A stretch of DNA of 64,000 nt, taken from NCBI GenBank assembly GCA_030295235.1, contig AP026164.1, positions 1,798,001-1,862,000 on the forward strand, read 5' to 3'. Every line of letters starts with the position of its first letter. Within the stretch, counting starts at the first letter, position 1. This DNA is from Fistulifera solaris (lineage: Eukaryota). The position numbers were made by a program, and so were the translations under genes. This document shows positions 8,940 through 59,383 of this stretch, piece by piece. Under the pieces are notes generated by a model, which was not told where the DNA came from, did no database searches, and worked only from the letters and a program-made list of their open reading frames with translations.

Positions 8940-10043
8940 TACTGTAGTGCATTCCAGTCTACTCGAGTAGATGCAGTCGTGAATCACGTGTACCGAACAC
9001 AAGAATAGGTATGATATTATCATCCACCAACCTGTTACACGACACACTTCTTTTGAGTGCCCCTGACAATGGAATTCTTGCCGAGTCCTACTGGCTTAGA
9101 ATAAACAGCAGCACCCACATTGACACTCCATTCCAGGACGAGTTCAGCCGCAACTCCATCGACTCGTTTCCGAATACAGTGTACAAAGCCATCGTAGGAC
9201 CCTACAACAAAATAGCAACTCGGGGGGACTAAGAGGTGACGTTGAAAGATGCAGTGAAATCGACGTTGAGCTTGGCAACGCGATCAAATGAATTGAGCCC
9301 CAAGGCTCAGCAATGAGAACTTCTTCTGCAGTAACGTGGAGGATATCTTTGTAGACAGGCCCCACCTGAAATTTGGATAAACTTTTCAGACTCAAACCAC
9401 TTTCGCTCATAAGGGCAAGATCGCTGCATTCATAGTCAAAGCTGGCATAGACTGAATTGCCTTGCGGTAATATGACTCCACTTGAAGAAATTGTCTGGCT
9501 GAGCTTAATTGACGACACCTCCTTTTGCTAAAGCGCAGAAAAATGTTTTTAGTTGCCGACCGCATACAACCTGTTAACCTCGCCATCAAGAATGGGTGTG
9601 TGCTTAACTGGTTCGTCAATCTCTTTCTGCCACACAATAGATTGCAAGTTTTGTCTGAAGCAAGTGATGAGCCCTTGGCCACTTCTTGTATGGCCACACA
9701 CAATAATGTATTCACCGAATACAACCACCTCACTTTGTATCATCCATTCAGTGAAATAATGGGGCGCTTGTGTAATTCCACTCTTGAAGTCAACTTTTGA
9801 ATGGCTCCTCGTCGACAACCAATAAAGAAGCAACTGAGATCCTTATTTGGGACAGTTGGGCTCGAACCGACGCAACCTCGGAATCTCACAGACGTGTGTT
9901 TGCGGGAGATGGGGTTGAAATGGCGGAAAAGTCAGCGACAAAATGTTCAGTCAAGAAGACGATTGCATTTTCGCAATCACATCCTCTGATCTTTGGTAGG
10001 TCAGTACCGGATGAGACTATGTTGCAACGACCTCTCGTTATCA
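8940..10043 (-). CDS. Putative PQQ-like beta-propeller protein (fragmented by frameshifts, or a pseudogene)
   Basis: Minus-strand fragments 9549-9833, 9144-9518 and downstream contain blade-like motifs (IVWQKEIDEPVKHTPIL, SPLSPP, VGSYDG-like, W-terminated blades). Boundaries approximate. Confidence 0.4.
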
Positions 10044-38241: not shown

Positions 38242-38545
38242 ATGGCAACGTTGCTTGTCTACTAGGTCGGGAACGCGATTGAATACCAAAAATAAGCTAG
38301 GGAGCGCCTTTCGGACCTCGATGGGAAGATAGAGGTTTAAAAAGAGTGTCTATGCATTATCCGAGAATCGAGCTCGGAGCTCGACGATGGCAAACGTCGC
38401 TTGTCTACTAAGCTAAACAAACGATTGCATACCAAAATAAGACTAGGGATCCTATCTAGGACCTTGATGGCAAGATAGAAATCGAAAAGAGAAATCATTG
38501 CACCGTCCGAGAATCGAACTCGGAGCTCGACGATGGCAACGTCGA
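38242..38545. repeat. Degenerate ~145-bp tandem repeat (~2 copies)
   Basis: ATGGCAA(A)CGT(T/C)GCTTGTCTACTA...ACCAAAA(A)TAAG at 38242 and 38387; CCGAGAATCGA.CTCGGAGCTCGACGATGGCAA repeated, with a third start at 38533. Confidence 0.8.
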
Positions 38546-39015
38546 ATTTTGCCATTAAACCAACGGTGCAGATGACGCCCAAAGGAGAAATTTGAGTTCT
38601 TGATATGATTGTGATTTTGACGGTGGTTTTGGTGTGTTTGAATTCAACGGCAGCCACGAGAAATGGATGGTTGAAATTGAATAACTCTTAACCTTATAGA
38701 GGTTAAGAAGTGAGAAGTTGTATACACTTTAGACATATATCTTAATAACGGACGGACACAAGCAAAGATACCGTCTATCGGACAGACGGGGATCGCATTG
38801 CGCTTAGCTTATACCAGGTATCTTAGCGCTTCGCGCATTCGCATGAAAACTGGACTTTCACGTTTCGCGGCGTGATGGTTGACACCTCGTTTCTTGGACG
38901 CGTCACCTCGAACCGATGTCAATCGTCGGCCGATCTCCAGAAGCGAAAGAATAATTGCCACCGTTCACAAACCCTCCAAAAAAACACGTTGTAGCAATTA
39001 TTTCAGCACAAGTTC

Positions 39016-56535: not shown

Positions 56536-57399
56536 TCAATGGATCCAAAAAGAGTGTAGCCAGTCAAATGGAACCTTTTCTCGCACATAATCGTTCAATG
56601 TGCCAAAAAATGACATGACATGTGACAGTGAAACGCTTACGTACTCCTTGTAACAATTGTGCTTTGAATCGCGAAGACGTTCATTCGCATTTAAGAGATC
56701 GTATCTGGTGATGAGTAGCTCAGCTTTCCTTTGCTCGAGTTGAGTCTCTTTTTCGGTAATATGATTTTCAAGCTGTGCCTTTGTCAAAGCTAGATCCCAG
56801 TTGCGCTGTTCCTGCCAGCGAAATTTTCTATTGTATGCGGCCTCAATTTCACGGCGTGATTCTTCCACAAATATTTTGGACGCCTCCTTTTCTTCAATTA
56901 ATTTACGTTCCAGCAAAAGAATTTTTTCATCCAAAGCATCCTTTGCTTGCCCGACATGGGAAACTTCAGTCTGCGCATTCTTCATCTCTTCCCGCAACGC
57001 CTCCATCTCGGTCTGTGATTCAAGCCACTTCGCGTGAGTAGCCTCAAGAAGTGCCTGAGTTTCAGAATATAAACGTTGTACGCGGATTAGCTCACTTGCT
57101 GTCTTTAGATTTTCGGTGCATATGGTTTCATCTTCGCTGTTAACCGGAGCCTGTTCGAGGATAGTGGTCTCCAATGATGCTACCAATGACTGGCAATCGG
57201 AGAGCTCGTCCTTTATTTTTTGGTGGAAATCATGCATTGTGTCATTCTTATCCGCGGAAAGCTCATCCGTTTCCGTGCGTTGTGGTCTATCCTTGAAGTA
57301 GCTTTCGTAAGGAGGCATGAACGCCCGTGCTAATGAGGAGAAAAGAAGGAGCAAGACTATTGATGCGGTTTGATGCCGGGAAATAAAAGAAGCAGTCAT
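56536..57399 (-). CDS. Hypothetical coiled-coil protein with signal peptide
   Basis: Intact 287-aa ORF; hydrophobic N-terminus ending LARA-F; heptad-rich body. Confidence 0.65.
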   Translation of the reverse strand: MTASFISRHQTASIVLLLLFSSLARAFMPPYESYFKDRPQRTETDELSADKNDTMHDFHQKIKDELSDCQSLVASLETTILEQAPVNSEDETICTENLKTASELIRVQRLYSETQALLEATHAKWLESQTEMEALREEMKNAQTEVSHVGQAKDALDEKILLLERKLIEEKEASKIFVEESRREIEAAYNRKFRWQEQRNWDLALTKAQLENHITEKETQLEQRKAELLITRYDLLNANERLRDSKHNCYKEYVSVSLSHVMSFFGTLNDYVREKVPFDWLHSFWIH

Positions 57400-57587
57400 G
57401 ATTTGTTACGCGTCGAAGAACCGGTACGAACAAATCACAGAATGATTAGTTGATTGTGGTACGTCTCTCTGGGTGAAGAGCAATACGTATAATGCTTTAG
57501 ATTAAATTACCAGGTATGATTGTCAAAAGTCGACTTCATCGTTAGCTTCCCATTAGAAAACAGAAAAGAGAAAAAAGCGAAGAGATT

Positions 57588-57981
57588 TGTTAAAATACTA
57601 ACGTACTGTGGAATCGAACCACAGAGCCATCCCAATCACGTCGTATTTCTACCCCGATCCATGATATATAAGCCACTCTGACTGACGTACAGACCCTCAA
57701 TCTGACATCCTCCCTGGCCTTATACTATCATGATCCGTACTGTTTATGCCCTTCAGCCTCCTCACTTGAGACCGCTTCCAGCCCTGCTCTTTTATCCTCC
57801 CGGCTTCTCAGGAGTCGGCAACAAACGCACCACGCGCGGGTTCGAACCCTGCACGTTACCATGTTAAAATACTAACGTACTGTGGAATCGAACCACAGAG
57901 CCATCCCAATCACGTCGTATTTCTACCCCGATCCATGATATATAAGCCACTCTGACTGACGTACAGACCCTCAATCTGACA
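57588..57981 (-). mobile_element. TRIM-type miniature LTR retrotransposon (394 bp): LTRs 57588-57707 and 57862-57981, TSD GAGATT
   Basis: Two identical 120-bp TG..CA direct repeats. 154-bp non-coding interior with a PBS (TGGTAACGTG on - strand) and a PPT (AGGGAGGA on - strand) abutting the LTRs. GAGATT at 57582-57587 and 57982-57987. Confidence 0.95.
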
Positions 57982-58239
57982 GAGATTCACCACGTCCACG
58001 TGGTAAGGTTAAGGCTATCAACTATCAATGTGCTTTCACCGTTCACTGTTCTCGGTTCATGGATGAAATCTATTTTTTAGAAAACCTGGTCGCATACGCA
58101 AAGCTCGAAAGACTTCACCCTTATTAAGGGTTTTGTCGAGGGACATTTGATATGAAGAGGGATCCACGTTCCAATAGAACGATACCCTAATGAGTGACTA
58201 AGAGCATAGTCACGCAAAAATTCGTCTATAGGTGAACAG

Positions 58240-59383
58240 CTATAAAACAATTTGGGTCCAGCAGTTGGAGCGGCCAATTCGCTTGTAGACAAGTGTTTTA
58301 TCACATCGATCGCCAAATATTTTGCAGTATGGAACGTCGCGTATCAGCTTAAGAGTTGCGCGAAGAGAATCGCAAAAGCTGTCTTCTTCGCAATCCGGTG
58401 ATGTACTCGTATACTGTAGCAGAAGGTCGTCGGGCATCTTCAAAAATGACTCCATTCCTCGAAATGGACTGTAGGCGAAGGGTTCGATGATGGTGTAGCA
58501 CGACTTTTCGCAATGAATTTGATTTAAACGAGGAGCAGCGGTGTTTCGTGTAAACAACCGCGCCGATCGAAGCACAGGCAGAGGGCCCGAAACGTCTTCG
58601 TCGCATCGAGCCAAGAAGGCATCACCCGATACTAGGTCAATAGCAAGTCCCCTACCTACTGGTGAGCCATTCCCCGAGTCGTTTAAACAGGAAATGGAGC
58701 AGGTTTTGAAGGCGAGACAGAGACTCTCTCGTTCCTCGTCCGCGATATCAGCCAGTAAGTGAATCATCCAGTTCGAGATGTTCTGAGAAGTCCCGTCTAT
58801 GTCATTAAAGCCACCCATTACGTGAACGGATATTGCAACCTTCTTCTCTCCCCCTCCAGTGGTGGTTGCGATGACGGACGACCATAGAGCGAATGCATTT
58901 CTCGTAGCTCGTTGAGTCAATGTGACTAAGACTTACAAGAGGGGCATTGTCGTCGGAGCAACTGCGCAGTGCTAGAATATGACATGTTGTTGCCTTGTCA
59001 CTCATAATGACATCGCATTGAGCAGGAACGGCGTGTGCTACTTCACCTTGTCCTACGTATAGAATGCGTTCCCTGGAGAAGCGCGAAAAATGGGCAGGGT
59101 CTACAGAGAGGAATGCATCGCGTGCATCCAGAATTTGCGGCAGACATTGCAGACATTCATCTACATCTAAGCTTGAGCCTGATTTTGGCAAGTAAATTGG
59201 CACGTCTTGACCCTCAGAGGTATCATCTATGCATTCAGAATCTCCGGAAACACGAAGGTTGGTTTGTCGCAAACTTACTTCCTCGGATCGGTTGGCTTGG
59301 AGCGCTTCTAAGGACGACACGCGCTTTAAAGCACTTTCGAGGCTTACGAGCGTTCCTGTTGAATCCGAATTGGCAATAACCAT
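58240..59383 (-). CDS. NTAN1: Protein N-terminal asparagine amidohydrolase; frameshift near 58850
   Basis: LYVGQGEVA, SDKATTCHILALR, SLSHID, VHVMGGFND, GPLPVLRSAR, LLQYTSTSPDCE. Confidence 0.85.

Follow-up and report, generated by a model that had tools for sequence, protein, structure and literature searches.

TRIMs that carry a tRNA-derived sequence in their LTRs were described by Kojima in 2024 under the name Helenus, and Helenus, Cassandra and Ajax together make up the group TRIMp3 (PMC10886601). Helenus has been reported from fungi, from six animal phyla and from Selaginella, but from no stramenopile, and the terms diatom, Bacillariophyta and Stramenopil have 0 occurrences in the supplement of that paper (PMC10886601). 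A literature search for a diatom TRIM or a diatom Helenus, judged on listings and abstracts, found none, and a term search of Maumus 2009 (PMC2806351) returned no primer sites, tRNA or TRIM. In the plant Cassandra elements, according to the available sections of their descriptions, each LTR holds a small-RNA gene module with a Pol III promoter and a terminator near the PBS (8 nt away in ferns), and tandem arrays of LTR and core are known. The Cassandra module is described in these sections as 5S-derived, with boxes A and C, whereas the element presented here gave no 5S match (Rfam, up to E 10). A further relative in design is the retrozyme (PMC5680766), which is presented in the available part of that paper as a non-autonomous, TRIM-like LTR element of plants with a hammerhead in each LTR. 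A structured small-RNA motif in the LTR is common to retrozymes and to the present element, and here too the LTR-plus-core unit could close into a circle, but no match to the hammerhead or to any other ribozyme was obtained (Rfam, up to E 10).

The element analysed in this study is a gene-less stretch of 394 bp with minus-strand sense, bounded by two direct repeats, at positions 57588-57981 of the window (the whole 64-kb stretch of diatom DNA that was analysed). The host is a raphid diatom close to Fistulifera, as judged from a 501-aa kinase ORF of the window, for which the best named relative is a tousled-like kinase of Fistulifera solaris (87% identity), followed at greater distance by matches from Nitzschia, Mayamaea and a Bacillariaceae MAG. 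The features of the element are listed in Table 1. A preliminary description of this DNA had called the element a TRIM, and this was confirmed by the presence of the full anatomy: identical short LTRs, TG..CA ends, a target duplication, a PBS, a PPT and no coding capacity. The two LTRs are identical at 120 of 120 nt (100%), their starts are spaced by 274 nt, and they have TGT..ACA ends with GAGATT on both outer sides. As the PBS, which begins with TGG, abuts one repeat and the PPT abuts the other, the sense strand of the element is the minus strand. The longest ORFs in the element are of 44 and 45 aa; these two ATG ORFs overlap on opposite strands of the core (57728-57867) and are probably meaningless. 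No second copy of the element was found within the 64-kb window. A short direct repeat, GTACGT(C/T)AG, is present at LTR positions 18-26 and 102-110; an insertion into an older LTR, of which this repeat would be the footprint, was considered as its origin. The 3' LTR with its TATATA lies approximately 190 bp upstream (57399-57588) of the ATG of a 287-aa minus-strand ORF (56536-57399), to which it is co-oriented. A TATA-bearing LTR in this position could influence the promoter or the expression of the downstream gene.

Table 1. Positions of the element's features in the 64-kb window, with LTR positions in brackets where they apply.
Feature	Position	Strand	Evidence
Left target-site duplication GAGATT (5 or 6 bp)	57582-57587		Same six letters beyond the other LTR
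3' LTR, 120 bp, minus strand reads TGTCAG...TTAACA	57588-57707	-	Direct repeat; contigs of other copies diverge at 57586/57587
Internal core, 154 bp, non-coding	57708-57861	-	Sequence and ORF list
5' LTR, 120 bp	57862-57981	-	Direct repeat
Right target-site duplication GAGATT	57982-57987		Sequence
Predicted PBS core TGGTAACGTGC, abutting the 5' LTR	57851-57861	-	Sequence; 11-pair match to LTR module plus CCA
tRNA-sense T arm GCGGG/TTCGAAC/CCTGC, antisense extension of the PBS	57836-57852	+	T-arm scan
Polypurine tract (PPT) AGGGAGGA, abutting the 3' LTR	57708-57715	-	Sequence
T-arm hairpin with B-box match, 5' LTR (LTR 84-102)	57880-57898	-	B-box and T-arm scans
T-arm hairpin, 3' LTR copy	57606-57624	-	B-box and T-arm scans
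Acceptor-like 3' strand GTACGTT plus discriminator A (LTR 102-109)	57873-57880; 3' LTR copy 57599-57606	-	Geometry from the T stem
TTTT, 3 nt past the discriminator (LTR 113-116)	57866-57869; 3' LTR copy 57592-57595	-	T-run list
TATATA (LTR 38-43)	57939-57944; 3' LTR copy 57665-57670	-	Sequence

Like this element, the Helenus elements are TRIMs of less than 1 kb with TGT..ACA LTRs, a 5-6 bp duplication, a PBS and a PPT (PMC10886601). The likeness extends to a tRNA-like module in the 3' part of the LTR, with a GGTTC box B and a T run (PMC10886601). The Helenus consensus LTRs given there run from the module through the T run and a few nt to ..ACA and a TGG-PBS, which is the same order as that found here. 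Among these, Helenus-1_SMo of Selaginella also has an LTR of 120 bp, in which the TTTT stands six nt before ..ACA and the TGG-PBS adjoins. The minus strand of the diatom LTR is made up, towards its end, of the T arm (85-101), GTACGTT (exactly 7 nt), A, GTA, TTTT (113-116) and AACA, and the PBS follows. The module (T arm, acceptor-like strand and discriminator A) lies 11 nt before the PBS, with GTA and TTTT in between. The final 36 nt of each LTR resemble the 3' end of a tRNA gene, including trailer and terminator, and only this 3' third of a tRNA is recognisable in the LTR. The TTTT at LTR positions 113-116 provides the sole T4 runs on the sense strand of the element (one per LTR).

The T-arm hairpin CTGTGG-TTCGATT-CCACAG (minus strand) is perfect, with 6 of 6 pairs and a canonical loop. 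This hairpin and its B-box match had been pointed out in the preliminary description, and both were found in the two LTRs and above chance level. The B-box consensus GGTTCGANNCC occurs five times in the 64-kb window, compared with an expectation of 0.48, and a count of five was reached in none of 100 shuffles; four of the five matches fall within the element. The sequence GGTTCGATTCC, a match to box B (GGTTC...), is present in both LTRs. The fifth match, GGTTCGAGCCC at 9858-9868 (minus strand), is outside the element and has neither a T-arm stem nor a tRNA call. A strict T-arm search, which required a 5-bp stem, G53/C61 and the loop TTCRANY, gave four matches in 64 kb: one is a tRNA-Gly, two are the minus-strand LTR copies and one is on the plus strand at the PBS side. 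The mean in 300 shuffles was 0.16 and the maximum was 2. This tRNA-Gly is the sole tRNA gene of the window (Gly-GCC, 38498-38570, minus strand, 57.9 bits). The 30 nt before it contain no TATA-like word, and TTT and TTTT runs are present within 15 nt downstream.

Searches for a complete tRNA in the LTR and PBS with Rfam and ARAGORN yielded no credible candidate. The tRNA model of Rfam had no match on the LTR or on the PBS side (up to E 10), and the only Rfam match of the LTR was a 17-nt local one, in which the T arm aligns with the tRNA-like domain of a tmRNA model at 7.2 bits and E 3.2. ARAGORN detected nothing on the element unless its thresholds were relaxed; the 'tRNA-His' that was then called is an artefact, in which both LTRs are joined over a 241-nt 'intron'. 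The word TGGCTTA (LTR 33-39), which had been suggested as a weak A box, shares letters with TATATA (38-43) and precedes the B-box match by 55 nt, but its likeness to an A box does not exceed chance. Compared with TRGCNNAGTGG, the best site agrees at 7 of 9 informative positions, a score that was equalled in 22.5% of 5000 shuffles, and both TGGCTTA and AGTCAGAGTGG (LTR positions 25-35) were dropped as A-box candidates for this reason. A candidate 5' acceptor strand at LTR positions 66-72 (6 of 7 pairs) was also dropped, as it is equalled in 75-95% of shuffles. In contrast, Helenus keeps a clear box A (TRGCY..YGG), with many tRNA calls by tRNAscan-SE. The proposal of a tRNA analogue of Cassandra was therefore borne out for the tRNA-like 3' part of the LTR, and not for the A box or for a match to the tRNA model. 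The idea of such an analogue is not new, as it was already published as Helenus/TRIMp3 (PMC10886601).

On the plus strand, positions 57836-57861 read GCGGG-TTCGAAC-CCTGC-ACGTTA-CCA, directly against the LTR. The letters and the count both agree with the earlier view of this region as a T arm with a CCA end, 2 nt short of the canonical 7+1+CCA when counted from the T stem. Pairing of GGTTCGA in the LTR with TCGAACC in the PBS region had also been proposed; this pairing is real, and is part of a much larger complementarity. When CCA is appended to the LTR module, 11 contiguous pairs are formed with the PBS from the 3' end, one of them G-U, and beyond these, after a short asymmetric loop, GGUUCGA pairs with the UCGAACC block. 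The energy of the module-PBS duplex is -32.0 kcal/mol, compared with -13.2 +/- 3.0 for shuffled PBS, and none of 1000 shuffles reached it. The minimum-energy fold of the leader contains the module-PBS pairing, and the whole leader fold is only mildly better than that of shuffles (z -1.82; 10 of 200 equally good). Three outer pairs, on both sides, distinguish the T stem of the LTR module from that on the PBS side, so neither T arm is a simple copy of the other. The only tRNA of the window (Gly-GCC) did not fit the PBS, and a literature search with the PBS letters returned only unrelated primers.

Extended or bipartite primer sites occur in Ty1, Ty3 and retroviruses, where contacts reach past the 3' 18 nt of the primer to the T arm. 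Self-priming in Tf1 reportedly relies on pairing of the PBS with the 11 nt at the start of the transcript. Leader RNA is thus said to pair with the PBS in Tf1 too, whereas in the present element the pairing segment is a tRNA-like U5 module. To our knowledge, a sense copy of the 3' part of a tRNA is present in none of Tf1, Ty1, Ty3 and the retroviruses. With respect to Helenus, Kojima looked for complementarity between module and PBS and found it in no family (PMC10886601), in contrast to the 11 contiguous pairs and the second block described here.

Evidence for a family of such elements was taken from contigs of the public runs X1, X2 (wetland metagenome), X4 (metatranscriptome) and X8, the RNA-type label of X8 being a guess. 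Contigs of this kind cannot show the start, end, strand or polymerase of a transcript, and they can be broken by variation between copies. The window's own locus is contained in X1 with zero differences. Contigs fitting both LTRs (16 of 42 in X1 and 25 of 48 in X2), together with contigs of unrelated flank that break at 57586/57587, the end of the LTR (one in X1 and four in X2), establish a dispersed multi-copy family, the members of which end exactly where the repeats do. Summed contig depth is many times higher on the LTR than on the flanks, a value which is not a copy number. A second form of the locus in X1 is approximately 12% diverged (83 differences in 694 nt), and in it 57495-58143 is replaced by 274 unrelated letters; the joined form is found in both X1 and X2. 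Most simply, this would be the other haplotype without the insertion, and the site is probably empty. The agreement between these 274 letters and the length of the LTR-plus-core unit is taken as a coincidence, as they gave no alignment to the element at 85% likeness. At 56551-57494 and 58144-58611, the approximately 12% diverged form was seen beside the window's own form in X1 and X2, as would be expected if the host and its wild relatives had two diverged haplotypes or subgenomes.

Among the differences listed (there are 312 further ones), seven in the core are shared by most family contigs, at 57735, 57779, 57787, 57808, 57827, 57831 and 57832. Three diverged contigs align across the hairpin region (loose ends at 57603, 57605 and 57629), and the acceptor-like 8-mer is kept in them. 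Other copies were observed to have insertions or duplications in the stretch from the T arm to the LTR end (57588-57606 and 57862-57880; loose ends at 57603, 57605 and 57873), and the words ..GTACGTTAG and TTTTAACA are retained in these copies. Exact-pattern scans for family copies in metagenome, viral and prokaryote genome contigs found none.

In X4, one contig bridges LTR, PBS, core, PPT and LTR (57620-57903); its ends are at LTR positions 79 and 88, and it does not close into a cycle. A 304-nt contig of core, LTR and core was found in X8 at a depth of 47, and forms a closed cycle of 274+30. In X8, 12 of 30 bins had zero depth, among them those on either flank of the element, and the depth over a neighbouring gene was 48-120. 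We take the coverage in X4 and X8 as the presence of family RNA. The 274+30 cycle could equally reflect transcripts with long terminal overlaps, tandem arrays or circles. The contig ends were also considered as transcript ends, with a start downstream of TATATA and a short R; no conclusion was drawn from them, as contigs do not show such ends.

The explanation preferred here, to which we assign a probability of about one half, is that the element is an ordinary TRIM, mobilised in trans, whose U5 module is derived from a tRNA and for which a host tRNA serves as the primer. The element would belong to the Helenus/TRIMp3 kind, reduced to the recognisable 3' third of the tRNA. As it encodes nothing, it needs the proteins of an autonomous element, and it would be copied by those of an autonomous LTR partner. 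This partner is probably of the Copia type, in view of the 5-6 bp duplication, the TGT..ACA ends and the fact that diatom LTR elements are mostly Copia. Transcription would start approximately 25-30 nt downstream of TATATA. The PBS would be bipartite, its first 11 nt pairing with ...G(C/U)ACGUUA-CCA and its second part, after the asymmetric loop, contributing at least 7 nt of pairing with the T-arm sequence GGUUCGA. A single putative host tRNA may both prime the element and have given rise to the LTR module, and module and PBS are predicted to form a single long U5-PBS stem in the leader RNA. The derivation from a tRNA is supported by the excess in the T-arm scan, by the exact succession of 7 nt, A, GTA and TTTT, and by the Helenus-like layout; the real tRNA-Gly of the window is likewise trailed by a T4 run. 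Several points count against this explanation, among them the lack of fit of the window's only tRNA, the leader fold that is only mildly better than that of shuffles, and the three pairs at which the T stems differ. A tRNA with the 3' end G(C/U)ACGTTA would begin with AACGT.., which is unusual for an elongator. A54/A60 are the hallmark of the T loops of eukaryotic initiator tRNAs, and neither T loop here (LTR or PBS side) has them. Any role of the B box as a Pol III promoter is hypothetical on this reading.

A genuine Pol III-driven TRIMp3 is an alternative that we regard as rather unlikely. TFIIIC would bind the B box, with TFIIIB perhaps placed by TATATA, and a transcript starting in the 5' LTR would read through the first TTTT and stop at the TTTT of the 3' LTR, in which case R would extend to LTR position 116 and U5 would have just 4 nt. 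Such a promoter is suggested by the perfect B-box match inside a perfect 6-bp hairpin and by a layout as in Helenus and Cassandra, the LTRs of which, in the available sections, have Pol III promoters and terminators. The length of the unit is inside the Pol III range, and the closed 304-nt contig of X8 needs ends that overlap by at least 31 nt, or read-through. The TTTT 3 nt past the module, with no other T4 on the sense strand of the 274-nt unit, would also be in keeping with a terminator, but by our own estimate the absence of another T4 in 274 nt is expected from composition approximately half the time. The position of the TTTT raises a difficulty, as it lies between module and PBS and a Pol III transcript must read through it to include the PBS; the real tRNA-Gly is trailed by T4, so most Pol III transcripts would end before the PBS. 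The A box (7 of 9 positions, 22.5% of shuffles), the lack of a tRNA model match and the failure of ARAGORN except with a spurious 241-nt intron also argue against this alternative.

We consider it improbable that the tRNA likeness now serves no purpose, as a relic or by-product. In that case, a fragment of a tRNA gene or pre-tRNA would have been captured in U5, reverse transcriptase would once have run into the primer and so produced the over-long PBS, and both would now be decaying. Decay is concordant with a recognisable tRNA part limited to the 3' third, with a PBS side 2 nt out of the canonical tRNA register, and with the insertions between T arm and LTR end in other copies (loose ends at 57603, 57605 and 57873). 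It is at odds with a hairpin that has kept all six of its pairs and a canonical loop, with the acceptor-like 8-mer preserved in three diverged contigs, and with a module-PBS match far above chance.

The same match bears on a different possibility, that the LTR encodes the element's own primer, the 3' end of which would anneal to the PBS. The primer might be a short RNA, from approximately position 66 to the TTTT, that folds as an acceptor/T-arm minihelix, is trimmed and receives CCA; addition of CCA to minihelices is a known phenomenon. Each LTR would then be a tiny TATA-plus-B-box Pol III unit, its product of approximately 50 nt would prime the element's PBS after trimming and CCA addition, and read-through past the TTTT would yield the template RNA. 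Alternatively, the U5 module of the genomic RNA might be cleaved and serve in cis, as in Tf1. The register of the 11 contiguous pairs is fixed by tRNA geometry and by the LTR/PBS border, and the probability that six Watson-Crick pairs past TGG arise by chance in a fixed register is approximately 1 in 4096. The lack of such complementarity in the Helenus families, the implied end AACGT../..ACGTTA, which is odd for a host tRNA, and the TATATA 28 nt upstream of position 66, with TTTT after the module, all favour a primer of the element's own. This is nevertheless the least probable of the explanations. Against it, the 5' acceptor-like strand (66-72) is not significant (at least 6 of 7 pairs in 75-95% of shuffles), a cut in cis leaves 11 nt of template to the RNA end and hence strand transfer on approximately 7 nt, and PBS position 10 is G where the module gives A, which is a G-U pair and not identity.

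TRIMs with tRNA-like LTRs were already known, and what is new here is the diatom host and the match between module and PBS. The diatom case extends these TRIMs to the stramenopiles, and fits a repeated origin. LTR modules of this type can be mistaken for tRNA fragments or for Pol III sites. The module-PBS match makes it a testable question whether an LTR element can carry or mimic its own primer, and the present element may, at low probability, encode one. If true, it would be a retroelement that carries both its template and a primer gene, and that is free of the host tRNA pool.
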